DNA from: Chloroflexota bacterium
GTDB taxonomy: Bacteria; Chloroflexota; Dehalococcoidia; UBA2979
Length of the DNA stretch: 64,000 bases
Assembly (NCBI GenBank): GCA_002707835.1
Contig: PANZ01000010.1
Location: 31,526-95,525, forward strand
Direction of reading: 5' to 3'
The translations under genes were made by a program, and so were the position numbers. Numbering within the stretch: position 1 is the stretch's first letter; each line of letters opens with the position of its first letter. This document shows, one piece after another, positions 2,889 through 23,010 of the stretch. The notes below the pieces were generated by a model. It made no database searches, was not told where the DNA came from, and saw only the letters and a list, made by a program, of their open reading frames with translations.

Positions 2889-2910
2889 TTGTATAATGAT
2901 TGTATAATGA
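2889..2910 (+). promoter_or_regulatory. Tandem duplicated extended -10-like box (TTGTATAATGA x2) upstream of the MoxR operon
   Basis: Direct tandem repeat ttgtataatga/ttgtataatga sits 35-55 bp upstream of the MoxR ATG. Each copy contains TGnTATAAT. Confidence 0.3.
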
Positions 2911-2944: not shown

Positions 2945-3931
2945 ATGAGAGAAGAAATATTCGATCAGACTGATTTTAATGACTCCATGAAAGATCTCGA
3001 GATCATTCGTGAAGGCTTTACTAGTGTAATCTTTGGCCAGAGCCAACTTATAGAACGTGTAATCATTACGTTGTTAACCAACAACCACTGTTTAATTGAA
3101 GGTGTTCCTGGCCTTGCAAAAACGCTGACTGTACAGACATTGGCTAGTGTTTTTGATTTAGAATTTACGCGCGTGCAATTTACTCCAGATTTATTACCTG
3201 CTGATATAACAGGGACTATGATGTATGATCCCGGTCAAGGTCTATTTAATCCACATTTCGGGCCGGTTTTTACAAATATACTTTTGGCTGATGAAATCAA
3301 TCGTGCACCTGCTAAAGTTCACTCTGCCTTATTAGAGGCGATGCAAGAACAGCAAGTTTCTATGGGAGGGCAAAGTTATACTCTTCCGAAGCCATTCATG
3401 GTACTTGCCACACAGAATCCAATTGAGTATGAGGCGACATATGCATTACCTGAGGCTCAATTAGATAGGTTTATGCTTAAAATTGTCATTGACTATCCAA
3501 CACAAGCAGAGGGTCGAGAAATTTTAGATGCTTCATTAAATTATGATTTTCGAATGGTTGAGAGAAAAATTAATATCGATTCTCTAAACAAACTGTGCGA
3601 TATCGTGCGGAAGATCGTTATTGATGAATCGATTAGGGAGTATATATTGCGTATTGTGCATGCATCACGAAATCCTTCAGACTATGGTTTATCGAGCATA
3701 GAACCGATGATTGATTATGGAGCCTCTCCACGCGCTGCTACTTTTTTGGCGAAGGGATCACAGGCCTTGGCTTTCTTAAATGGTAGAGAATATGTAACAC
3801 CAGATGATGTTAAGGCATTGGCTCCAGATGTTTTACGACATCGGTTGGTTACTAGCTATGAGGCAGATGCAGCACAGATCACGGTAGAAGAATTGATTAG
3901 AACACTCCTAGAGCATGTGAATATAGCTTGA
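2945..3931 (+). CDS. MoxR-family AAA+ ATPase
   Basis: Walker A GVPGLAKT is present, together with the MoxR hallmarks FTPDLLPADITG and LADEINRAPAKVHSALLEAMQE. Length is about 320 aa. Confidence 0.85.
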   Translation: MREEIFDQTDFNDSMKDLEIIREGFTSVIFGQSQLIERVIITLLTNNHCLIEGVPGLAKTLTVQTLASVFDLEFTRVQFTPDLLPADITGTMMYDPGQGLFNPHFGPVFTNILLADEINRAPAKVHSALLEAMQEQQVSMGGQSYTLPKPFMVLATQNPIEYEATYALPEAQLDRFMLKIVIDYPTQAEGREILDASLNYDFRMVERKINIDSLNKLCDIVRKIVIDESIREYILRIVHASRNPSDYGLSSIEPMIDYGASPRAATFLAKGSQALAFLNGREYVTPDDVKALAPDVLRHRLVTSYEADAAQITVEELIRTLLEHVNIA

Positions 3932-3944
3932 ATATGAGTGGCAA

Positions 3945-4871
3945 ATGTTAAATTGGCAAAAAGATCATGTACAGACTTCTTTGAATGACTTGGATGAAGA
4001 TTTTATATCTTCACTGAATATCAAGATGAAACAACTAGAGTTACGTTCTCGTAATCTTGCATCATCAACTTTAAGAGGAGATTATCGGGCAAGTTTCCAT
4101 GGGAGTGGTGTCGAGTTTGCAGAATCTAGAGAATATATTTCCGGAGATGATACAAGGTTTATTGACTGGAATGTCACTGCAAGAATGGGCAACACGTGGA
4201 TTAAGCGATACGTGGAGGAAAGAGACCTGACAATTATTTTGGCTGTAGATACCTCAGCTTCTCAATTGGTTGCAGGAAGGCAGAATGGTCGAATTGGTGC
4301 TTCTGCAGAATTGGTGGCATTGATTAGTTTTCTCGCAGTTGAGAATCATGATCGAGTAGGCTTGATGCTCTTTGATAAGGAAGTTAATGAATATATCAAA
4401 CCTCAACATGGTGAAAAACACGCACACAGATTAGTTCGAACAGTGTTAGATCAGAAATATTTTGCCCTAGAGACTTGTATTACAGAAGCATGCGACCGTC
4501 TGACCAATGTACTTAGAAAAAAGTCGATAATTTTTTTGCTGTCAGATTTTACTAATTTAGAAGATCTTGGAAGCTTGCATAGAATGTCAAAACGCCATGA
4601 TGTAATAGCACTAGTCCTTACTGACCCCGTTGATTTTGTATTACCAGAGGTAGGACTTATACAAGTTCAGTCCATAGAAGATGGTTATTCAACCATCATT
4701 GATACCACAGATCCTGTCGTCCGAGAAAGGTATAGATTGCGTGCTAAGAATTTTTCTGAGTTGAGGAGTCAAAAATTTTCGTTGGCAAATGTGGGTGAAG
4801 TCAAAATTGATGTGACGCAAGACTTATTAAATCCGTTGAGTAATTATTTTAAACTGCGATCGGTAAGGTAA
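3945..4871 (+). CDS. DUF58-family protein (MoxR partner, degenerate VWA-like)
   Basis: It lies immediately downstream of MoxR. The motif ILAVDTSASQ (DxSxS-like) is typical of DUF58 proteins. The stop overlaps the next start (TAATG). Confidence 0.7.
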   Translation: MLNWQKDHVQTSLNDLDEDFISSLNIKMKQLELRSRNLASSTLRGDYRASFHGSGVEFAESREYISGDDTRFIDWNVTARMGNTWIKRYVEERDLTIILAVDTSASQLVAGRQNGRIGASAELVALISFLAVENHDRVGLMLFDKEVNEYIKPQHGEKHAHRLVRTVLDQKYFALETCITEACDRLTNVLRKKSIIFLLSDFTNLEDLGSLHRMSKRHDVIALVLTDPVDFVLPEVGLIQVQSIEDGYSTIIDTTDPVVRERYRLRAKNFSELRSQKFSLANVGEVKIDVTQDLLNPLSNYFKLRSVR

Positions 4872-5842
4872 TGAAAAAGCCACATGGTTGGTTGGTAGTG
4901 GCAATGGTAGTTATTTATGGTATTACTTTTAGTAGTATACATGCGCAAGAATATCCAGATTATGACGTTAGTGTTAGAACAAATCCGAACGAAGTTACAG
5001 TTGGAGATTTAATAGACATTACAGTAGAAATTTCACATAAAGAAGATGTTATTTTTACGATAACTGAACCAATTTTACCGTCGGGTATGGATATAGTATC
5101 GAGTGAAGATCAAATTAGTATTTTCGATCGAACGAGTGGAGATTTAGTAATATCGAGTCGGACTTTTAAAGTCGCTTCGTATGTACTCGATCTTCAAGCG
5201 AGTGGATACATTGATTTGTTATGGGTCGATTCAAAATTAGGCACAGGTAAAGTCAGCATAGATCTTCCTCAAATTAATATATATCCAACAAGAAATAAAG
5301 ATGATGGGTCCCTACGTCCATTAGCGCCTTTGTTTAGAGAGGAAGGCTTTTATAGTTTTAATTATCAAGAATTGCTAGCGATTAGTGGATTTTTCCTTTT
5401 GATAGCTTATTTGTTACTTCGTATTAGAAAACGGACAAGTAAAGAAGGTACATTCCCTATACAACACGATGAAGATATTGCAACAAATCGATTAAGTTTA
5501 TTAAGAGGAGTGAGTTTAGACTCTGTAAAAAATTATCGAGAATTTTATCAGTCGATAGATAGAATCATTAGGCAATATATTTCATCAAGATATAACATGC
5601 AGGCATCTTCGTTAACTGTAAAAGAATTAATTGTACTGGGAGATCTTGCCCAGATTGACAAATGGCAACTTCGTTTGATTAGAGATTTACTTAATCGCTG
5701 TGATGAAGTTATTTATGGCAATATTTTGCCTGATCCAATTTTAGCTGACCGTGATCTTACTATTGCATACGAGATTATAGAGTTAAATCGTGGAAGTGTC
5801 TCGGGCGAGATAACGACTAGGGATATCGAACATGAGATTTGA
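4871..5842 (+). CDS. Hypothetical exported/membrane protein of the Bat-like operon (possibly BatD-like)
   Basis: It has an N-terminal signal-like hydrophobic segment, one internal TM segment (LLAISGFFLLIAYLLLRI), and is translationally coupled on both sides. Confidence 0.45.
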   Translation: MKKPHGWLVVAMVVIYGITFSSIHAQEYPDYDVSVRTNPNEVTVGDLIDITVEISHKEDVIFTITEPILPSGMDIVSSEDQISIFDRTSGDLVISSRTFKVASYVLDLQASGYIDLLWVDSKLGTGKVSIDLPQINIYPTRNKDDGSLRPLAPLFREEGFYSFNYQELLAISGFFLLIAYLLLRIRKRTSKEGTFPIQHDEDIATNRLSLLRGVSLDSVKNYREFYQSIDRIIRQYISSRYNMQASSLTVKELIVLGDLAQIDKWQLRLIRDLLNRCDEVIYGNILPDPILADRDLTIAYEIIELNRGSVSGEITTRDIEHEI

Positions 5843-6782
5843 AAACATCGAATTTTTATGGCTTATTCCGATAGCATTCCTTTGTGTATTGTGTATTAGT
5901 TATATTGCTGCACCTCGGCATAACTTATGGATATCAAATGTAGAATTAATTCGAGGAGAGTTTAAATCAAATTGGAGGATACGTTTATGGTGGTTACCCT
6001 CTTTTTTAAAGGGGATAGTCATTTTATTGTTAATTTTTGCGCTGGCACGACCACAATTTGGATTGAAACGGATAGAAATCCCATCGGAGGGAATAGACAT
6101 TGTAATAGCACTGGATGCTTCTAGCTCGATGGACTTAGTTGCAAACAATATAAAAGGTGAATCACGCTTGGAGCAAAGTAAAAATGTTGTGGTTGATTTT
6201 GTCCAAAATTTTGCAGGTAACCGTATTGGATTAATTATTTTTCAGTCACGTACTTTGACTTTATCCCCATTGACCTACGATCATAACGCCCTTCGAAGGC
6301 AAATCGAATCAATAGAAACGGGAATGATCGACGATGGAACGGCCATTGGTCTAGGCATTATGGAGGCTTTGTCATTGCTTAAGAATTCTCCTGCAAAAAG
6401 TCGTGCGATTATTTTGCTGACTGATGGTCAGAATAATGTAGATGTTGTTTTACCAATACAGGCTTCGCGTGTTGCTGAAACTTTGGGAATCAAAGTGTAT
6501 ACAATTGGATTCGTTGGACAAGATTCTGTAAGTGGAATGACGATCGATACACAAATGCTGCACTTGGTCGCAGAGAGAACGGGTGGATTTTTTTACAATG
6601 CGAAGACAGTTGATGAATTGACAGCTGCCTATCAAGATATTTCTAAATTAGAAAAATCGAATTTGGCAGACATTACTTATTCTGTAGAGATGGATATCGC
6701 GCAATATCTTATTTGGTGCGCATTTGCATTAGTGGTGTTTGGATTTGTTTTTAAAAAGTTTTTTCTGCGGGTGTATCCATGA
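5832..6782 (+). CDS. VWA-domain membrane protein (BatA-like)
   Basis: N-terminal TM helices are followed by a VWA MIDAS motif IDIVIALDASSSMD and LLTDGQNN. Confidence 0.75.
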   Translation: MRFENIEFLWLIPIAFLCVLCISYIAAPRHNLWISNVELIRGEFKSNWRIRLWWLPSFLKGIVILLLIFALARPQFGLKRIEIPSEGIDIVIALDASSSMDLVANNIKGESRLEQSKNVVVDFVQNFAGNRIGLIIFQSRTLTLSPLTYDHNALRRQIESIETGMIDDGTAIGLGIMEALSLLKNSPAKSRAIILLTDGQNNVDVVLPIQASRVAETLGIKVYTIGFVGQDSVSGMTIDTQMLHLVAERTGGFFYNAKTVDELTAAYQDISKLEKSNLADITYSVEMDIAQYLIWCAFALVVFGFVFKKFFLRVYP

Positions 6783-8536
6783 ATTTTGATACTCCCATAT
6801 TCTTATTGGCTCTGATCTTACTACTGCCTTTTTATCTGTGGAGTAATCACTTGATTAGGGTTCGCAGGAGATATTTTGATATTGACGGTCAGAACCAGTT
6901 AATACGTTCAAGGTTTATTAATAAAACATATCAAGTAAAAAATTTTCTCTTAGTTTTATGTCTAGCGTTTCTAATAATTTCAATGGCAGGGCCAAGTTGG
7001 GGTAGTGTTGAACGTCCATATAAAAAGCAAGGGATAGATGTTGTGTTTGCGCTTGATATATCACGATCGATGACTGCTACGGATGTGATTCCTTCGAGAT
7101 TAGAAATGAGTGTTTTTGAACTTCAAAAGCTATTGCAACATCTGGAAGGCAATAGAGTGGGTTTGGTCCTTTTTGCAGGTAATGCAATTGAACGTGCACC
7201 TCTAACTTTGGATATCGATGCACTTTCCCAATTAATTGATCAAGCACAATGGGAGTTTCCATTAGTAAAGTCAGGGACTGATTTAGATGATGCTGTTTCA
7301 AAAAGCCTAGCACTATTGAGTGTGGAAGATTCAGCAAGCACACAATCGATAGTAATTATTTCCGATGGAGAAGATATAAAAGGTGTCAATTCTGAATCAA
7401 TTCAACAAGCTAACCTTGCCGGTATCGCTATATATACGGTAGCAGTTGGCACTGAATCAGGTGGCTTCATTCCGAACGATCTTTCAGGGGGAGGTGTCAC
7501 AAAAGTTGATGTTGAAAAGCTTAAAGGGATTGCCGAAATTACAGGAGGTATTTTTTTTCAGGTACAAGATATTGAATCAATAATATATGAATTACACAGA
7601 GGTGAAATTACTGAATTTAAGAACATCAATTATACGATGCCTAATGATATTAGCAGCTGGTTTGTGTGTATTGTTGTTTGCTTATTAGTTATTGATTTGG
7701 GATTAAATCATCGACTGTTTTCTAGTAAAAATCTATTCACATGGGGGATGGCTATTGTAATTATCAGTGTCATTCTTGGTGTGGGATGTAGTGATTCAAA
7801 ATGGTCAAGTAGTGTAAAAGCAGGGAATCAAGAATACCTAGAAGGAAATTTTGATTTAGCTCTTTCTCATTATCTTAATGCTAGAGAACTAGATAACGAA
7901 GATCCATTGTTGGCATATCATTTATCTAATGTATTGCATTATTTAGGAAGAGATGATGAAGCGGCAGTTGTGGCCCAACAAGCTTTACTGAAAACTGATG
8001 ATGTTAGTTTGAAATATTTAATACACTATGCGATGGGTACCTATGCATTTGAAAGAGGGATGCTCGAGAGCGCTCGAGATCATTATATTCGATCTCTACA
8101 GTTACAGCCGACCCATAATTATTCAAAGCAAAATTTGGAATTGGTCTTAAGTTTACTTATGACAAGAGAAATTACACAACAAGAGTTAAGTCAGCCTTCT
8201 GGATCAGAGAACGCAGTGCCACAAAATGAAATTAATACCAATGGAGATCAATTAACTAATGCACAGTCGATTACAACTGCTAATGATATTACTGGGAAGG
8301 ATACGGGAGGATTAAATACAAATACGGAGAAACAAGATCCAGTTGAAGAAAATCAGATTGAAACAGAAGATCTTATATCTGAGGTTCAAAAATCGTTCCA
8401 AAGTGAATTAATTGATGATTCAAATGTTTTAACCAGATTAGAAGCTAATAATCTAGTGCTTTTAATACAAAGATGGAATGAACTTCAAAGAGAAGAGGAG
8501 CTGTCTCAAGAATTATTTAGCATTGATGAAAGGTAA
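6779..8536 (+). CDS. VWA-domain plus TPR-repeat membrane protein (BatB/BatC-like fusion) with an acidic low-complexity tail
   Basis: VWA motifs IDVVFALDISRSMTA and IISDGEDI are present, then a TM helix, then TPR-like repeats (YLEGNFDLALSHYLNA…). The start overlaps the previous gene by 4 bp (ATGA). Confidence 0.7.
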   Translation: MNFDTPIFLLALILLLPFYLWSNHLIRVRRRYFDIDGQNQLIRSRFINKTYQVKNFLLVLCLAFLIISMAGPSWGSVERPYKKQGIDVVFALDISRSMTATDVIPSRLEMSVFELQKLLQHLEGNRVGLVLFAGNAIERAPLTLDIDALSQLIDQAQWEFPLVKSGTDLDDAVSKSLALLSVEDSASTQSIVIISDGEDIKGVNSESIQQANLAGIAIYTVAVGTESGGFIPNDLSGGGVTKVDVEKLKGIAEITGGIFFQVQDIESIIYELHRGEITEFKNINYTMPNDISSWFVCIVVCLLVIDLGLNHRLFSSKNLFTWGMAIVIISVILGVGCSDSKWSSSVKAGNQEYLEGNFDLALSHYLNARELDNEDPLLAYHLSNVLHYLGRDDEAAVVAQQALLKTDDVSLKYLIHYAMGTYAFERGMLESARDHYIRSLQLQPTHNYSKQNLELVLSLLMTREITQQELSQPSGSENAVPQNEINTNGDQLTNAQSITTANDITGKDTGGLNTNTEKQDPVEENQIETEDLISEVQKSFQSELIDDSNVLTRLEANNLVLLIQRWNELQREEELSQELFSIDER

Positions 8537-10888
8537 TAAATTACGAAGTTTGACGATCGGTTTTGCAATAATTCGTTGGAGTAGAATTTTTTTAATTTCG
8601 TTGTAACTGGAGATTAAAGCTACTTCATTAGATGTATAAGTCGTCTCCGGATTTCCATATCGTACTGCATTGTAGGAAGTCGCTAACACTCTAAAATGAG
8701 ATGCATTGCCTACGCTTTTGGAAATTAAATCAGACCACTCTAAAGGTGTTTGATTTGCAATCAGGGGCAGTCCTGCCCATTTGGCTAAGTACTGTATTTT
8801 CGCCCAATAACGTTGATTAGGAGGTACTTTTCTAAATAAATATAACCATATTCCCCAAATTATGAAGGTTATTGCGATTAAGGTTAATCCAAGAACAGCG
8901 CAAAAAATTAAGACTTGGAGTATGTTTTTCACAGTAAGAATATTGCTTTCTGTAGAATCGCCGATCTCAGAGATACCTAATGGACTTGAAGTATTTAATT
9001 CATCAAGAAGTTCATCATCATCATCTTCTTCCTCGAAAGGAAGTATTTCTGTCCCAAGTGCTAAGCTATCGGGTGACCAGTTAGGTTGGTTAGTACGTTG
9101 AACGAGAGGGCGATTGGGCGTGGGGTTAAATTCTATCCATCCAAGTCCTGGGAAATAAACTTCAGGCCAAGACCAACTATGTATCTCGCTAATTTTATAA
9201 GACTTTGATGAAGTATCAAATGAATTTGTGTCGAGAGTAAATCCTGTAGCTATTCGTGAAGGGATTCCTATTGTTCGAAGCAATATTGTCATTGCAGAAG
9301 CATGATGATCAAAATAGCCACGTTTTTCTGTGAAAAGAAAATTCTCGATTACATCTGAACGTGGTGGTGGTCTATTAACATCAAGTGTGTAGGGATAATT
9401 ACGTCTTAAGTGATCTTCAATCTTTCGAGCTGATATGTAGGGATGCTCAGCAGTACTTGCAATATCTGTGGCCAACATCTTAATGCTTGTAGGCAGACTG
9501 TTAGGTAATTGTAAATAATGTTCTTTTATATGTGATGGATAATCTAGCGAAGTGCTAAGTATGGATTGAATTGGTGCAACTGAAATTGCACCTACGGTGG
9601 TGTAGGTCATGTTTGGTTTTAATCGATCTTTTGGAGTTACTCCGATGATGTCATTGGATTGAGTATTGATTACGTTTTTTGTATTTATATCAGAGGCGAT
9701 AGGTTCGCCGTGAAAAAGGAGACGTCGGTTAGGTATTGGGTTTAGTATTGTGACAGTCAAAGATCGTGGTTCGCGTAATTGTGATTGAGTTAAAGATGTT
9801 CCAAATAAAGCGGCATCTATAGTAGTTCCACTTGAGTTAACGAGGATTGTGTCTGAAGTACGCCAACCAAAACCTGTATATTCATCATAAATAGCGGCTT
9901 TAAAATTACCAGGCGATATGGTTTCAATTTCCATGAGATCTGTATTGCTGAGGCTGATAGATGCTTGTAGGGGCATTGTTTCACCAAAGCTATGGACTGG
10001 GAGGTCGCGTTTTGATGAAACGCCCGCAAAGACTCGATTGAACCACTCGAATCTTTCTTGAAGAGGTGAGGTTACGTTTTCAAAGTATGTGTCTACAGGT
10101 TTCCAATTGTTGAAAGTAGGTGTTAACCAGGCGAATGTTACTAGTATAAATGAAGTTGCTATTCCTAAAAAAATGATTTGTATGGATATGTGCTCTGGCC
10201 AAGGTCGACGTTCGACATGCCATTTTTCCAGTGAACGCATGAAATTGATTTGTACTATTAATAGGATTGCTATAAATAAAAAAATTATTAGTTCAACATT
10301 TTTTGAATAGGAAAGGTAGGAAATATTCGTCAGTAAAACAAATCCAGGTGGAAGTAATGCTAGCCAAGGATTTTTCCATCGAATTGTTGATAGAACTGCA
10401 TAGAAAGAGATCAAGCTAACTGTCAGGATTAGAATAATTACAAAAGGTAGTGGATCATTTGAAATCCCTCCAGTTACAACAGCGGAATACCAATCGTAGA
10501 TTCGGAATAAGAATTCATTGATATGTAAGTAAGGTTGATTTGCTGTTGCAGGATTAGTAGTTTTTAGATTCCAGACGATCGTGCTTAATGACAAGATAAT
10601 TGTCGTAATTGTTCCGACATACAGACTTTTGGAGAAGTATTTGATCTGAAAAATGATCGTAATTAATCCAGCGACGAAACCAATCAATGTGGATATATAA
10701 ATAGAGGGCATCTCATCAACCCAGTTGGCATTTTCTAGTGAATGGGTCATAGCCAACAGCGCTATTAACAAAAGAAATATACTGAACCAAGAGTAACCAT
10801 GCAGGAAATGCTCTAATATTGAATTTGGTTGTTCATGGCGATCAGTATCACTAGGACGAAATAAGTGTTCTAGTTCTGAATTAATCAT
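8513..10888 (-). CDS. Transglutaminase-like membrane protein (TgpA/DUF3488-type) with apparent substitutions of the catalytic Cys and Asp
   Basis: The N-terminal half is multi-TM. The core region FLFTEKRGYFDHHASAMTILLRTIGIPSRIATGF followed by IHSWSWPEVYFPGLGWIEFNPT aligns to the TgpA motifs GFCEHxA…GIPAR, HAWxEV and GWVRVDPT. This gene overlaps the convergent BatB-like gene by 24 bp. Confidence 0.8.
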   Translation of the reverse strand: MINSELEHLFRPSDTDRHEQPNSILEHFLHGYSWFSIFLLLIALLAMTHSLENANWVDEMPSIYISTLIGFVAGLITIIFQIKYFSKSLYVGTITTIILSLSTIVWNLKTTNPATANQPYLHINEFLFRIYDWYSAVVTGGISNDPLPFVIILILTVSLISFYAVLSTIRWKNPWLALLPPGFVLLTNISYLSYSKNVELIIFLFIAILLIVQINFMRSLEKWHVERRPWPEHISIQIIFLGIATSFILVTFAWLTPTFNNWKPVDTYFENVTSPLQERFEWFNRVFAGVSSKRDLPVHSFGETMPLQASISLSNTDLMEIETISPGNFKAAIYDEYTGFGWRTSDTILVNSSGTTIDAALFGTSLTQSQLREPRSLTVTILNPIPNRRLLFHGEPIASDINTKNVINTQSNDIIGVTPKDRLKPNMTYTTVGAISVAPIQSILSTSLDYPSHIKEHYLQLPNSLPTSIKMLATDIASTAEHPYISARKIEDHLRRNYPYTLDVNRPPPRSDVIENFLFTEKRGYFDHHASAMTILLRTIGIPSRIATGFTLDTNSFDTSSKSYKISEIHSWSWPEVYFPGLGWIEFNPTPNRPLVQRTNQPNWSPDSLALGTEILPFEEEDDDDELLDELNTSSPLGISEIGDSTESNILTVKNILQVLIFCAVLGLTLIAITFIIWGIWLYLFRKVPPNQRYWAKIQYLAKWAGLPLIANQTPLEWSDLISKSVGNASHFRVLATSYNAVRYGNPETTYTSNEVALISSYNEIKKILLQRIIAKPIVKLRNLLPFINAK

Positions 10889-10890
10889 AA

Positions 10891-12156
10891 TTAATCACCA
10901 GTCGTTGATTTAAATTTATGGGGTATTTTTCTTGAAAGTGCGTTAGTAAGATCAGTCCCAGCTGCTATGTCGTAGTGAAGTATTCCATTTTGTTCTAATG
11001 ATTTATACACATTATCGGAATTAATAAATCCACCGAAGCTTTCACCATTTAGTGTGATTGCTGTTACTTGAATGCCGCGATTATTAAGGCCTCTAAGTTC
11101 CGTAATCCATTGAGTATTAGTGGAGGGAGTAATAGCGATAACTGTTGAGTGTCGTCCAAATTTTGGGGATTGATCTAAAATTAATTGTTCCATCGTGACG
11201 GATCCTATGGCTTTTGCAAGTGCCAGTGATTCAAGGATACGAGTGAAGTGTGAATTTCCTTTTTCAGGTTTATCTACCTTAATAGACGAGTCAAAAAATG
11301 CAAGACCAACCGACCTGTTGGTTTGTATAAAATATCGGGCGAGGCCTGCACAGATTTGTGCAGATATTTCTTCAGTAGAATTTAAATTGAATCCAGTGTG
11401 ATGTGTTTTATCTAAATCTAAGAGTAGACATATTTCAGAAGAGGGGTCTATTTCAAATTCTTTGACTATTGTACGACCCTTTCTTGCGGTACTTGGCCAA
11501 TGAATTCTGTTGAAGGCATCGCCAGGTATATAATCTCTTAATCCAAAGATGTTCGGTGTAATATTATGGCTACGTTTACGAAAATGTCCTTCACCAGGGA
11601 GGTTTGAGGATGGTGTATTAAAGTAGTTTATTTCAGGGGTGTAAGGGTATATCAGTAGTGTTGATTCACTACCAAAAGTTTTCGAAAACTTAAAAAAGCC
11701 AAAAGGGTCTGTAGCTGTAACAGTGAGAGGGCCTAGTGTATACAGGCCACGGAGTAGTGCCTTTGTATTATAAGACCAGACAGTAGTACCTCGAGATGGA
11801 AGGGTGATTGCTCGTTTTGATGTGTGTGAAGGAATAGTCGATTGGTCAGATAGTTCCAGCCAGATTTTTGGCAGTATTGAGCTGGATCGAAGGGTGATTC
11901 TTCCTCTTATGGATTGTCCTTGTGTTGCTCGTTGAGTTTCTCTAACAATTTCCACATCGAGGCTGTTAATCATGGATTTTGTCCATAAATAAAGTAAAGG
12001 GAGTGCAATGATAATTATGTAAAAAAGTCTAAATAGTAACCAAAATCCCGTAGACAATCCCAAGAGTAAACATATTATAGCCAAAGCTACGGCTATGGAT
12101 GGGCTGGGGAACTTTAGACAAGTCTGTTTTAAGTTTGAAATAGATCTTGTTATCAT
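10891..12156 (-). CDS. DUF58-family protein with N-terminal TM helices
   Basis: It sits between MoxR and the TGase-like gene on the minus strand, has the DUF58-like core (…EICLLLDLDKTHH…), and two N-terminal TM segments. Confidence 0.7.
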   Translation of the reverse strand: MITRSISNLKQTCLKFPSPSIAVALAIICLLLGLSTGFWLLFRLFYIIIIALPLLYLWTKSMINSLDVEIVRETQRATQGQSIRGRITLRSSSILPKIWLELSDQSTIPSHTSKRAITLPSRGTTVWSYNTKALLRGLYTLGPLTVTATDPFGFFKFSKTFGSESTLLIYPYTPEINYFNTPSSNLPGEGHFRKRSHNITPNIFGLRDYIPGDAFNRIHWPSTARKGRTIVKEFEIDPSSEICLLLDLDKTHHTGFNLNSTEEISAQICAGLARYFIQTNRSVGLAFFDSSIKVDKPEKGNSHFTRILESLALAKAIGSVTMEQLILDQSPKFGRHSTVIAITPSTNTQWITELRGLNNRGIQVTAITLNGESFGGFINSDNVYKSLEQNGILHYDIAAGTDLTNALSRKIPHKFKSTTGD

Positions 12157-12164
12157 TGCATTTG

Positions 12165-13127
12165 CTAATTACTACCACGGGCGCGATCTCCGGGTACCCT
12201 TACTCGTCCGATTATTTCATCAATAATTTGATCATTGCTGACACCGCGTATGTGCGCACTAGGATCGATGATTATTCGATGTCCCAAAGTTGGATAAGCT
12301 AAAATCTTTACGTCATCTGGTTGGACAAAATCCCGCCCTTCAAGCATGGCGTATGCTTGAATTGATCGCATTAATGCCAAAGATCCCCTTGGTGAGGCAC
12401 CGAGATAGATATTTTCATGCGAACGAGTAGCATTTACCAAATCAACAATATACTGCTTCACTAAAGGATCGATGTAGATATTCTTAACGTTTTGTTGTAG
12501 TTGTTTGATTTCTTCAGGAGTTGTTATTGGAACAAGGTTTTCAAGCGGATGTTTTGATTGCTGGGAATCCATAATATTAATTTCTTGTGCAGGGGTAGGG
12601 TATCCAAGATTGATATGGATTAAAAAACGATCTAACTGTGCTTCAGGTAAAGGAAAAGTTCCTTCATATTCGATAGGATTTTGAGTTGCGATTACCATAA
12701 ATGGACTGGAAAGATAATGGGTATCCCCGTCCACTGTAATTTGGTTTTCTTCCATGGCTTCAAGTAATGCAGATTGTGTTTTAGGGGTGGCTCGATTAAC
12801 TTCGTCCGCTAGGACAATTTCAGAGACAATTGGCCCTGCGTGAAATTCGAACTCACCTGTTTGTTGCTTATAAATTGTGACACCAGTGACATCAGAAGGC
12901 AGTAGATCAGGTGTGAATTGTATACGTGAGAATTGACATCCTGTAGATTTTGCTATCGATCTGGCAAGTATTGTTTTACCAACTCCCGGAACATCTTCAA
13001 TAAGTAAGTGACCATTACACAGCAATGCAATTAGGGAGAGCTTAATTTCATGTTCTTTACCAAGAATTACAGTGGTAATATTATCGATAATTTTCTGGGT
13101 CGTTAATTGTGGATTATTCAATTGCAC
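12165..13127 (-). CDS. MoxR-family AAA+ ATPase (paralogue of 2945..3931)
   Basis: GVGKT, FTPDLLPSDVTG and LADEVNRATPKTQSALLEAMEE are present. It is clearly paralogous to the first MoxR. Confidence 0.85.
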   Translation of the reverse strand: MQLNNPQLTTQKIIDNITTVILGKEHEIKLSLIALLCNGHLLIEDVPGVGKTILARSIAKSTGCQFSRIQFTPDLLPSDVTGVTIYKQQTGEFEFHAGPIVSEIVLADEVNRATPKTQSALLEAMEENQITVDGDTHYLSSPFMVIATQNPIEYEGTFPLPEAQLDRFLIHINLGYPTPAQEINIMDSQQSKHPLENLVPITTPEEIKQLQQNVKNIYIDPLVKQYIVDLVNATRSHENIYLGASPRGSLALMRSIQAYAMLEGRDFVQPDDVKILAYPTLGHRIIIDPSAHIRGVSNDQIIDEIIGRVRVPGDRARGSN

Positions 13128-13196
13128 CTCGCAGATTTCCTATATATTTTATCAAGGATTTAGTACTTAAAGTGATTCTTAGAATAAGTCTAATAT

Positions 13197-14138
13197 TCAA
13201 ACCTTGACTGCAACAAGACACGTCCAATTTGAATCACTTAATATATCGATTGTTTCAAAATTAAGTTGTTCGAGTTTGGATTTGATTTCAGGTAGATGAT
13301 CATTAATGAATCCACTCAATATCGCTAATCCTTCATTTTTCAGGGCATCTTTTATTAGTGCGATTAATTCGAGGATAGTGCTAGTTGAGATATTAGCGAT
13401 AATAATGTCGGCTAATGATGATTGTTGAGGGAATTGGTCTGGCCAGCTCGATCCCAATGTTCCATGGGCTGCCAGTATTTTCGGGTGAGTATAATTTATT
13501 TTTGAATTTTTGATTGTTATGTCAATGGCATTATTATCGATATCAAGGGCGTACGCAGATTTTGCACCAAACATTATTGCCCCAATGCTTAATATGCCTG
13601 AGCCGCATCCAAGATCGATTATAGTATCTTGTTTTTGAGTGTATCTTTCTAGTGCAATTAGACAAAGTTGACTAGTGGGGTGCTGTCCTGTACCAAAGGC
13701 AGCTCCAGGATCAAGAGTAATTTTTGTTTCCGAATGCCTTGGATGATATTCAATCCAGGAAGGGCAGACGACAATATTTTCTCCGATACGCTCTGTTTTA
13801 TAATATTTTTTCCATTCATTAGCCCAATCATCATTTTCAATTATGCGGTAGTGAATACGAGGGATCTTAGCTGTTATAGGTAGTGCATTTAACATTTTTC
13901 TAAAACTTACACGTTCTCTAGTTGTAAAAGGTTTTTCTACATAAGCACGAATAATGGAAGGTTCATTTCGATAAGTAAATCCAAAATCGACATCAGTAAG
14001 GATCTCAATTGCTGGTTCAATAGTGACACCATTTGTGCTTATGCTTGAAAGGAATTCACTGATAATCGGAACATCTGATGGGGTAGACTTAATTGAAATT
14101 TCAAACCAGGAAAAGGTGCTAGAAACATTGCTAAGCAA
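13197..14138 (-). CDS. prmA: Ribosomal protein L11 methyltransferase
   Basis: [15 protein letters not shown] and the SAM motif [11 protein letters not shown] are present. It overlaps dnaJ by 8 bp, matching the Firmicutes order dnaJ-prmA. Confidence 0.85.
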
Positions 14139-21933: not shown

Positions 21934-23010
21934 TTATTGATTTAAGAAGGCAAGAGGATCTATAACTTGGTTATTATGACGTATTTCAAAATGAAGATGT
22001 GGTCCTGTGGATCGACCAGTATTGCCTGAATAACCGATCACTTCACCTTGCTCTACCCAAGCCCCGCTTTGTATTCGTTCAGGCCAACTACTTAGGTGTG
22101 CATAATATGACTCGTAACCATCGCCATGATCTATGATTACATAATACCCGTAAGAAACCCAAGGATCTCCACCGACAAATTGTACGACACCTGGTTTAGT
22201 CGCAACGATAGGAGTGTTTTGAAGCAATCCAATGTCCATACCTAATGGATGCCATGCGCTAAAATAAGAAGTGATTGGGCCCATAGCAGGCCAAAACCAA
22301 AGGCCACTTTGCTCTGGTATTACTCCAGGGACAGGTCTAATAGTTGAGGCTGGTGTTATTTTTCTACCTCCAGGCACAAAAATCATTGTGTCTCGTAATA
22401 ATGAGTCAGGATCTGATAGTTTGTTGGCAGGGAAAGTCAGGATACCTTCAACTGTTGCATCGTACCTTTGAGCTATCTCGGAAACAGTATCATCAGAGCG
22501 AACGGCGTGAATGATACCTTCCACCCAAGGGACAAGAAGTTTGTCACCTGGTGTTAATTCATCTGGATCGTGTACGTGTATGTTATTCCATACAATATAT
22601 TCACTTCCTATATTTTGTTTTTGTGCTATTGAACTGATAGTATCTCCGTCTTTAACTGAATAATTCAGATACATTGCTATACGTGAATCAGGAGGTTTGG
22701 CGATTTCATTAGGAGATATCTCGTTTTGAGAGGATAGTGCTTGTTCATTATGACTATGACTATGATTAATTGAAGCATTGTCATTACTTAGGGGGTTGAT
22801 TTCTAAATTCATTGTGATATCAGAAGTTTTGTTGATGGTGCTTATGGATGCAGGGGCACTACTTATTACACTTGTGAATCCAAGTGGATTCACAAGTATT
22901 GAAGGTGAATTAATGTTGCTGGGGCTCATAATTGGGAATATTCCACTAATTGCTAAAAAAATTAGAAAAAAGGTCATTATCGAAGCATGGATAACTAAAA
23001 AATTAGACAA
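21934..23010 (-). CDS. LysM-domain M23-family peptidase (cell-wall hydrolase)
   Basis: Two LysM repeats are present (DGDTISSIAQKQNIG; SDDTVSEIAQRYDATV), and the C-terminal M23 motifs are IIDHGDGYESYYAHL and GYSGNTGRSTGPHLHFEIR. There is an N-terminal signal/TM segment. The start is uncertain: the track uses TTG at 23010, with an in-frame ATG 11 codons downstream. Confidence 0.8.
   Translation of the reverse strand: MSNFLVIHASIMTFFLIFLAISGIFPIMSPSNINSPSILVNPLGFTSVISSAPASISTINKTSDITMNLEINPLSNDNASINHSHSHNEQALSSQNEISPNEIAKPPDSRIAMYLNYSVKDGDTISSIAQKQNIGSEYIVWNNIHVHDPDELTPGDKLLVPWVEGIIHAVRSDDTVSEIAQRYDATVEGILTFPANKLSDPDSLLRDTMIFVPGGRKITPASTIRPVPGVIPEQSGLWFWPAMGPITSYFSAWHPLGMDIGLLQNTPIVATKPGVVQFVGGDPWVSYGYYVIIDHGDGYESYYAHLSSWPERIQSGAWVEQGEVIGYSGNTGRSTGPHLHFEIRHNNQVIDPLAFLNQ

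Follow-up and report, generated by a model that had tools for sequence, protein, structure and literature searches.

The window analysed here, a 64,000-nucleotide stretch of the Dehalococcoidia (Chloroflexota) contig PANZ01000010.1, carries at positions 2945-13127 two gene modules, each led by a MoxR-type AAA+ ATPase gene followed by a DUF58 gene. Eight open reading frames (ORFs) are involved, all placed by the ORF table exactly at the coordinates given in a sequence-only reading made without database searches, and they form two tight operons that converge tail to tail. Module A comprises five genes on the plus strand, in the order MoxR_A, DUF58_A, a DUF4381-type membrane protein (HypC), BatA and BatB-TPR, and module B comprises three on the minus strand, in the order MoxR_B, DUF58_B and a TgpA-like protein of the transglutaminase (TGase) fold. 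Spacing between genes ranges from -11 to +13 bp in both modules (overlaps of 1-11 bp), and such short gaps and overlaps point to operon organisation, as expected. Two known MoxR systems are represented by the locus in a class-specific variant, which adds a class-wide tail-to-tail linkage and a TgpA-like protein that is, by its triad residues, catalytically dead. The features are as follows.

2945-3931, plus strand: MoxR_A, AAA+ ATPase of the Bat-operon type, 328 residues (Pfam AAA_3, E-value 3.6e-61; AAA_lid_2, 1.2e-22)
3945-4871, plus strand: DUF58_A, soluble VWA-like protein, 308 residues (Pfam DUF58, 1.2e-54; VWA_2, 1.7e-8)
4871-5842, plus strand: HypC, single-pass membrane protein, 323 residues (signal peptide, BatD-like immunoglobulin-like (Ig) ectodomain, transmembrane (TM) helix 165-191, cytoplasmic DUF4381 helical domain)
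5832-6782, plus strand: BatA-like membrane VWA protein, 316 residues (Pfam VWA, 2.7e-18, and BatA N-terminal domain)
6779-8536, plus strand: BatB-like membrane VWA protein fused to a BatC-like TPR region, 585 residues (VWA_2, 1.4e-14; TPR_2, 5.8e-9)
8513-8536, both strands: 24-bp tail-to-tail overlap of the BatB and TGase genes, set by their two stop codons
8513-10888, minus strand: TgpA-like polytopic membrane protein, 791 residues (Transglut_core, PF01841, 5.3e-21, 75.4 bits, cut-off 23)
10891-12156, minus strand: DUF58_B, 421 residues, with an N-terminal TM hairpin, a beta-rich domain and a DUF58 domain lacking the metal-ion-dependent adhesion site (MIDAS) (DUF58, 1.1e-18)
12165-13127, minus strand: MoxR_B, AAA+ ATPase of the TGase-triad type, 320 residues (AAA_3, 1.6e-64; AAA_lid_2, 1.8e-24)

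The source organism is an uncultured marine member of the Dehalococcoidia. Contigs matching the locus exactly come from Tara Oceans and other marine metagenomes, the locus is identical in four independent assemblies, the 24-bp overlap included, and the closest named relatives are Dehalococcoidia (Chloroflexota) metagenome-assembled genomes (MAGs), one of them from Station ALOHA. The G+C content of the window is ~38%, and that of most relatives 58-77%.

Profile searches against Pfam exceeded the thresholds for MoxR and DUF58 domains in both modules, in agreement with the sequence-only reading. MoxR_A scored 205.3 bits to AAA_3 (cut-off 27) and 79.9 bits to AAA_lid_2, and MoxR_B scored 216.1 and 85.7 bits, respectively. 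The ATPase motifs are intact in both translations, namely Walker A GVPGLAKT (53-60) and Walker B ADE (D116/E117) in MoxR_A, and Walker A DVPGVGKT (45-52) and Walker B ADE (D108/E109) in MoxR_B. DUF58_A and DUF58_B reached 185.2 and 67.6 bits to PF01882 (cut-off 23.4). The two DUF58 copies differ in kind: the A copy is soluble, with no predicted TM segment, and has an intact MIDAS (D102-x-S104-x-S106) that is kept in all orthologues, whereas the B copy is membrane-anchored and degenerate at this position, where the window protein reads D247-L-D249-K-T251 and every orthologue LDL[EDQ]xx. A MIDAS motif is also missing from the DUF58 proteins encoded in stand-alone TGase triads of outgroups. Since the TM hairpin motif of DUF58_B, TGFWLLFR, is conserved in 79/79 orthologues, the 421-residue ORF is right and the public gene call of 360 residues (start Met62) is truncated.

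The Bat-like and TGase-like composition proposed from the sequence was likewise recovered by Pfam, with matches to VWA and BatA, to VWA together with TPR, and to Transglut_core. The BatA-like and BatB-like proteins share an architecture of a TM pair, a VWA domain with intact DxSxS and then one or two TM helices. In the former, TM segments are predicted at 8-26, 54-72 and ~290-312 and the MIDAS reads D95-x-S97-x-S99; in the latter, four TM segments are predicted and the MIDAS reads D93-x-S95-x-S97. The corresponding NCBIfam models are Leptospira-specific 'exception' models, and the window proteins stay under their cut-offs: the BatA-like protein matched the Leptospira BatA model at 1.1e-47 with 162.6 bits (cut-off 380), and BatB-TPR scored 115.7 bits for BatB (cut-off 350) and 51 for BatC (cut-off 175). 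The VWA domains of both proteins are predicted to face the outside of the cytoplasmic membrane, on the basis of the positive-inside rule and of a homologue, the BatA-like Borrelia protein BB0173, whose VWA domain has been mapped experimentally to the periplasm (PMC5700661). The BatB C-terminus (window 8440-8536, plus strand) is kept class-wide as an amphipathic helix, E.A..IL.L.R.AN.L, with a terminal [LV]P[DPA]R (IDER in the window), and this tail is predicted to be extracytoplasmic.

HypC, previously described as an exported protein, does carry a signal peptide, but it is a single-pass membrane protein. In its predicted topology the signal peptide and an outward domain precede the only TM helix, and the cytoplasmic part beyond it, which holds the DUF4381 domain, is ~130 residues long. 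The window protein itself has no direct Pfam match; among 24 orthologues, DUF4381 was matched in 12 and the BatD DUF11-like domain in 4.

The TgpA-like protein of module B has the TgpA layout, with an N-terminal TM domain, an outward beta-sandwich and TGase-fold domain, a TM helix at 659-677 and a cytoplasmic helical tail. Its sequence matches the TgpA structure 6G49 with an E-value of 2.8e-10, and its AlphaFold2 model matches the TgpA periplasmic-domain structures 6G4H/6G49 in Foldseek (E-value 4e-12, TM-score 0.70). DUF4129 is matched weakly in the window protein (16.7 bits, cut-off 24.8), with TM helices predicted where expected, and many homologues carry PF13559 and/or PF11992 in precomputed Pfam results. 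The idea that the DUF4381 domain of HypC and the C-terminal DUF4129 region of the TGase are homologous handles was rejected, the profile-profile comparison giving a probability of 1.3% (E-value 0.039) and focused alignments E-values of 0.09-0.56.

The sequence-only reading had described this protein as a TGase-like membrane protein, yet the catalytic triad, whose loss that reading missed, is replaced. Pseudomonas aeruginosa TgpA is an active transglutaminase with a conserved Cys-His-Asp triad (PMC3507681), and in the alignment to it (6G49) F526 takes the position of the catalytic Cys, W572 that of the His and N588 that of the Asp. Among 78 relatives of the window protein, none keeps the triad (C/H/D, 0), and the three positions read F/W/N in 66, F/F/N in eight, S/W/N in three and F/Y/N in one; five further loci beyond these show the same loss. 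Distant TGase homologues from stand-alone triads mostly retain GxC, and those with a recovered downstream region retain DAHxW and DPT; one outgroup exception, P0102, has Ser at the catalytic Cys position. What is new here is that the fold is kept while the triad is replaced class-wide. On its residues, the window protein is a member of the transglutaminase fold that should not be filed as an active transglutaminase; it could bind or scaffold, and probably does not catalyse.

A single scan of 185,579 species genomes with an alignment of TGase homologues returned 80 loci, all from Dehalococcoidia or Chloroflexota MAGs, with TGase identities of 31-81%. The typical layout, traced by tblastn with the window proteins, runs dnaJ, prmA, MoxR_B, DUF58_B and TGase, followed by the converging BatB, BatA, DUF4381 protein, DUF58_A, MoxR_A and dnaE. 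All eight genes were detected in 58 loci. Downstream sequence was long enough in 67 loci, and 66 of these had the convergent Bat module; the sole exception, L074 (L074:9863-13397), has a triad-less TGase with no adjacent Bat module and a convergent M23-like gene 1 bp after the TGase gene. Unlinked modules in relatives would, according to the sequence-only reading, have made the adjacency incidental. Instead, by a 3-kb criterion, A and B are adjacent in 64/66 loci, or 65 when the L042 locus, split by an insertion sequence (IS), is counted, and loci chosen via MoxR_A show the same convergent pair in 3/3 cases, on the coordinates of an independent gene caller. The best 120 homologues of MoxR_A are 55-100% identical to it and, where named, belong to Dehalococcoidia or Chloroflexota.

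Unrelated genes were found inserted exactly at the TGase/BatB junction in several relatives, comprising a DDE transposase of an IS (L042:12395-13777), an ERG4/ERG24-family protein (L038:8190-9365), a CAP-domain protein (L079:12402-13337) and a 72-residue DUF2007 protein (L095:13773-13991). Both modules are intact in these four loci. In L095, unrelated genes also replace the dnaE flank, and A and B are still convergent on either side of the 72-residue gene.

Both module types occur separately outside the class. Five stand-alone TGase triad loci, one from Acidimicrobiales, have no Bat genes nearby. Catalytically intact TgpA loci with at least 3 kb of downstream sequence were collected from metagenomes by a degenerate DNA motif scan (n = 31), and BatA, BatB or the DUF4381 protein was found in 0/31. 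The canonical Bat operon examined as an outgroup (one locus, L096) has no TGase triad adjoining it. The A-B linkage is a feature of the Dehalococcoidia lineage and coincides with the loss of the triad.

The ATPases and their partners follow the same division. In the window, MoxR_A and MoxR_B are 40% identical (E-value 2e-81), and within the class MoxR identities are 53-59% between A copies, 63-68% between B copies and 38-44% between A and B. Stand-alone TGase triads of other lineages have MoxRs that share 44-61% identity with MoxR_B and 37-43% with MoxR_A, and the upstream MoxR was best matched by MoxR_B in 30/30 metagenome TgpA loci. Conversely, the MoxR of the canonical long Bat operon L096 is 48.7% identical to MoxR_A and 41.9% to MoxR_B, and its MoxR and DUF58 are both closest to the A copies. 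Because each MoxR tracks its own module type elsewhere, the two are ancient paralogues and not the product of a local duplication. The earlier description of the MoxR and DUF58 proteins as clear paralogues overstates the case for DUF58_A and DUF58_B, which align at 28% over 148 residues (E-value 6e-12), and the modules are not simple copies. A recent inverted duplication was rejected, as no DNA-level inverted repeat joins the modules (best arm 31 nt, 71%) and the MoxRs group by module type. By these sequence comparisons, each MoxR/DUF58 pair belongs to its own module type, and the modules are homologous but anciently diverged.

How much the linkage itself conveys depends on its surroundings. 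Within 3 kb, MoxR_A remains beside dnaE in 48/54 loci and MoxR_B beside prmA in 54/62, and since these housekeeping flanks are nearly as stable as the A-B pair, adjacency is weak evidence of functional coupling. Such figures would suit an incidental frozen synteny, in which modules of unrelated function are neighbours through a little-rearranged block running from aspartokinase-dnaE to prmA-dnaJ-dnaK, as would the tolerance of insertions at the junction and the fact that the modules were never linked in the sampled loci outside the class. This explanation is nonetheless unlikely in our estimation, given that the A-B linkage outlasts both flanks, that the same families make up both modules, whose predicted site of action is the membrane, and that triad loss coincides with linkage.

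The opposite explanation takes the eight proteins as a single trans-membrane envelope complex, in which the dead TgpA ectodomain would have been co-opted to bind or scaffold the outward VWA and TPR domains of BatA and BatB, two dedicated MoxR/DUF58 motors would act from the cytoplasm, and the joint work of the parts would keep the genes adjacent. It draws on a linkage seen at TGase identities as low as 31% and retained in loci where one or the other housekeeping flank has been rearranged, on the confinement of triad loss to the linkage-bearing lineage, on the conserved BatB tail with its predicted extracytoplasmic location, and on the prediction that all large non-ATPase domains lie on one and the same side of the membrane, the outer one (PMC5700661; PMC3507681). 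Yet L074 has a module B with a dead triad and no adjacent Bat module, both module types stand alone in other lineages, each module retains its own ATPase and adaptor, and the nearly equal conservation of the flanks weakens the argument from linkage, so that a single machine appears improbable.

The junction between the modules is bounded by TAA on the plus strand (8534-8536) and by TTA, the reverse complement of TAA, at 8513-8515. These stop codons were read directly, and the 24-bp convergent overlap that the sequence-only reading had reported stands. Within it, the final seven codons of each gene, with the stop, lie opposite those of the other in exact antiparallel register, BatB ending ...LFSIDER* and the TGase ...LPFINAK*. 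Stop-to-stop distances could be measured in 66 loci and fell into the following classes.

Overlap of at least 24 bp: 29 loci, of which 28 have overlaps that are multiples of 3
Overlap of 4 bp: 3 loci
Gap of 0-50 bp: 23 loci
Gap of 51-500 bp: 8 loci
Gap of more than 500 bp: 3 loci

The conserved core of the TGase stops at R..[LI]PF, and overlap loci add 8-17 variable Arg-rich codons antisense to the conserved BatB tail; in the window's clade, nucleotides that encode the conserved LPF end of the TGase also belong to the last BatB codons. No intrinsic-terminator-like site was found at the junction, and the region as a whole has about as many of them as chance predicts (10 observed, 10.4 expected). 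Junction RNA segments of 101 nt, taken from the window and from six relatives, showed no gain in folding over shuffled controls (z-scores -1.96 to +1.09). On these two results, a bidirectional terminator or a conserved RNA structure at the junction was not supported. In some GC-rich relatives with a short spacer (L016:12300-12345), the BatB stop is spanned by a perfect palindrome, GCGACCGCTAGCGGTCGC, which may form a hairpin lacking a U-tract; the loci do not share it generally. GC skew over the whole window makes no lasting switch where the operons converge, and a replication terminus at that point was rejected. Plus-strand GC skew is positive (0.09-0.24) across module B (window 8500-13500) despite its minus-strand genes and negative over dnaJ-dnaK, so that the coding strand of module B is C-rich, unlike that of its neighbours.

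From the terminator-free overlap, the sequence-only reading had moved to regulatory coupling. In this explanation the overlapping 3' ends would be under selection, mutual antisense transcription giving exclusive or balanced expression through transcriptional interference or an RNA duplex. The junction indeed offers neither intergenic space nor a terminator-like site, 55 of the 66 relatives have an overlap or a gap of at most 50 bp, genomes of ~70% G+C included, and the codon phase is the same in 28/29 long overlaps. Tight convergent junctions are, however, common between unrelated genes: the other convergent pairs in the window lie at +5, -12, +25, +13, +76 and +310 bp, both genes being Pfam-confirmed in the +5, +25 and +76 bp pairs, and the TGase gene of three unrelated lineages runs 8-15 bp (-8, -12 and -15) into an unrelated gene that converges on it (Pyr_redox_2, DUF465, UvdE). 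Gaps exceed 50 bp in 11/66 relatives, an unrelated gene occupies the junction in 3-4, and no RNA structure is conserved there. Of the antisense frames in GC-rich DNA, that of the multiple-of-3 overlaps meets the fewest stops; they arise in it only opposite TTA, CTA or TCA, which are rare in GC-rich genes, and codon composition would therefore be expected to produce this phase without selection. With tight junctions frequent in the window and in outgroups, insertions tolerated and flanks nearly as conserved as the pair itself, the step from overlap to regulation is not supported. The overlap is probably not special and most likely a passive result of gene packing; antisense regulation is not favoured, and we consider it very unlikely. 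A combined version, in which the modules have merged into an eight-protein envelope machine, the TGase ectodomain acts as receptor or scaffold for the VWA/TPR proteins and the overlap ties the expression of both halves, is highly doubtful.

We favour, with moderate confidence, the account in which two separate operons, anciently diverged MoxR/DUF58 modules for membrane-protein remodelling, were joined tail to tail in a Dehalococcoidia ancestor and then inherited as a block, the overlap being passive. In module A, a cytoplasmic MoxR ring, presumed hexameric, would work with the soluble, MIDAS-competent DUF58 as adaptor, and the probable clients would be a type-I membrane protein with an Ig-like ectodomain and a cytoplasmic DUF4381 domain, together with two polytopic proteins with outward VWA/MIDAS domains, one of them bearing TPRs. 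Module B is a form of the widespread MoxR-DUF58-TgpA triad in which the triad-less fold could serve as binder or scaffold. Each DUF58 protein is envisaged as plugging into its own MoxR ring, by analogy with the Mg-chelatase pair, with NorQ/NorD, whose adaptor logic is summarised in PMC11432383, and with RavA/ViaA (PMC3893208). Through this adaptor mechanism, which we infer, ATP hydrolysis would be linked to the membrane partner, probably via DUF4381 in module A and via the C-terminal helical domain in module B. The large domains (VWA, TPR, Ig-like and TGase fold) are predicted to be outward, and the cytoplasmic parts of the membrane partners are small helical domains. The domains that face outward at the cell envelope would thereby be assembled or be activated by a conformational change, in a setting of stress or of the cell wall. 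As for the overlap, the TGase frame would have continued, in a codon-aligned phase, through sequence antisense to the BatB tail.

Several observations weigh against this account of separate modules and a passive overlap. The A-B linkage is slightly better kept than the flanks and survives the loss of the dnaE or prmA flank, which hints at something beyond inertia; triad loss coincides with the linkage-bearing lineage, a coincidence that purely independent modules leave unexplained; and near-universal abutment (55/66) with a fixed codon phase could reflect selection. The comparison of convergent spacing draws on the pairs in the window and on outgroup TGase neighbours, the GC-rich relatives being covered as 22-kb loci. 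The triad-replaced TGase domain may also have a non-canonical activity.

The genomic surroundings add some context to the envelope and stress setting. On the module A side, dnaE lies on the plus strand and ends at 2875, leaving a 69-bp spacer before the moxR_A start. This spacer holds a candidate promoter of module A, read from the sequence as follows.

2890-2897 and 2901-2908, plus strand: tandem TGTATAAT boxes, candidate module A promoter

The boxes sit inside a repeated GATTGTATAATGA; a generic promoter scan performed at chance level, and they stay a candidate promoter only. On the MoxR_B side, prmA, dnaJ, dnaK, grpE and hrcA follow on the minus strand, and the string hrcA-grpE-dnaK-dnaJ-prmA-moxR_B-DUF58_B-TGase lies entirely on one strand with gaps of at most 70 bp, which places module B directly downstream of a CIRCE (controlling inverted repeat of chaperone expression)-controlled hrcA-grpE-dnaK-dnaJ-prmA string in the window. 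Two CIRCE-like inverted repeats precede hrcA on the minus strand, at 18888-18862 and 18803-18777, reading TTAGCAGTC-N9-GAGTGCTAA and TTAGCACTC-N9-GAGTGCCAA; as the second spans the first GTG of the listed hrcA ORF, translation of hrcA probably begins further downstream. Scans of the 64-kb window found neither tRNA genes nor Rfam families above threshold.

A gene for an M23 peptidase lies divergently just upstream of MoxR_B, between prmA and module B, in 48/65 relatives, among them most of the GC-rich ones (for example L006:6316-7686 and L016:6165-7469, both on the minus strand). It is absent from this position in the window's low-GC clade, and the LysM-M23 gene of the window (21934-23010, minus strand) is 9 kb away and merely 35% identical over the M23 domain. 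The arrangement recalls that of mycobacteria, in which moxR1 adjoins ripAB (PMC12067865). The TgpA domain is located in the periplasm, and a connection with the cell wall has been proposed for it (PMC3507681). In Riemerella, a link of Bat operons with oxidative and thermal stress has been reported (PMC11834572), and for Leptospira Bat a specific function has not been demonstrated (PMC3557215).

Compared with known systems, module A shares with the Bat operons of Bacteroidota and Spirochaetes, whose canonical order is moxR-DUF58-DUF4381-batA-batB-batC-batD-batE (PMC3557215; PMC5700661; PMC11834572), the order MoxR, MIDAS-bearing DUF58, DUF4381 membrane protein, BatA and BatB, which L096 has too, and the common BatA/BatB architecture of an N-terminal TM pair, a VWA/MIDAS domain and a C-terminal TM helix. 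It differs in being compact, with the BatC-like TPR fused to BatB, the BatD-like Ig domain fused to the DUF4381 protein, no separate BatC or BatD genes and no BatE, and in being joined tail to tail with a TGase triad, which the canonical operon L096 is not. The mycobacterial moxR1-DUF58-VWA operon resembles the present locus in adjoining a peptidoglycan endopeptidase gene pair, ripAB, as M23 lies beside MoxR_B in most Dehalococcoidia relatives, whereas its hydrolase is of the NlpC/P60 type and M23 is not adjacent in the window's clade (PMC12067865). With NorQ/NorD and RavA/ViaA (PMC11432383; PMC3893208), the locus shares an AAA+ MoxR ring gene beside that of a VWA-fold partner, which provides the template for adaptor docking; here the probable clients would be membrane proteins with outward domains and not a respiratory enzyme, and DUF58_B lacks the MIDAS. 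Module B, in turn, is of the kind of the MoxR-DUF58-transglutaminase triads.

In Bacillus subtilis, such a triad is yeaC-yeaD-yebA. Others are represented by the TgpA family of P. aeruginosa (PMC3507681; PDB 6G49) and by the core of the bifidobacterial PFNA cluster (PMC8430577; PMC6803598). Module B has in common with them the gene order on one strand, the TgpA-like architecture and fold, the MIDAS-less DUF58 and a MoxR of orthologous type. It departs from them in the triad positions, occupied in the 78 Dehalococcoidia relatives by Phe/Ser, Trp/Phe/Tyr and Asn where outgroup triads mostly keep Cys, and in its fixed place beside a Bat-type module, an arrangement seen in 0/31 metagenome TgpA loci and 0/5 outgroup loci.

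MoxR-DUF58 cassettes, as Bat operons and as TGase triads, are very widespread yet poorly understood, and this locus shows one class keeping both cassette types tail to tail, down to 31% TGase identity. It advises caution against inferring regulation from 3' overlaps in compact genomes. It also offers two leads, namely that a TgpA-like protein can hold a conserved non-catalytic role in MoxR systems, and that the cytoplasmic DUF4381 and DUF4129-like domains would be the most plausible handles for the ATPase/adaptor pair.

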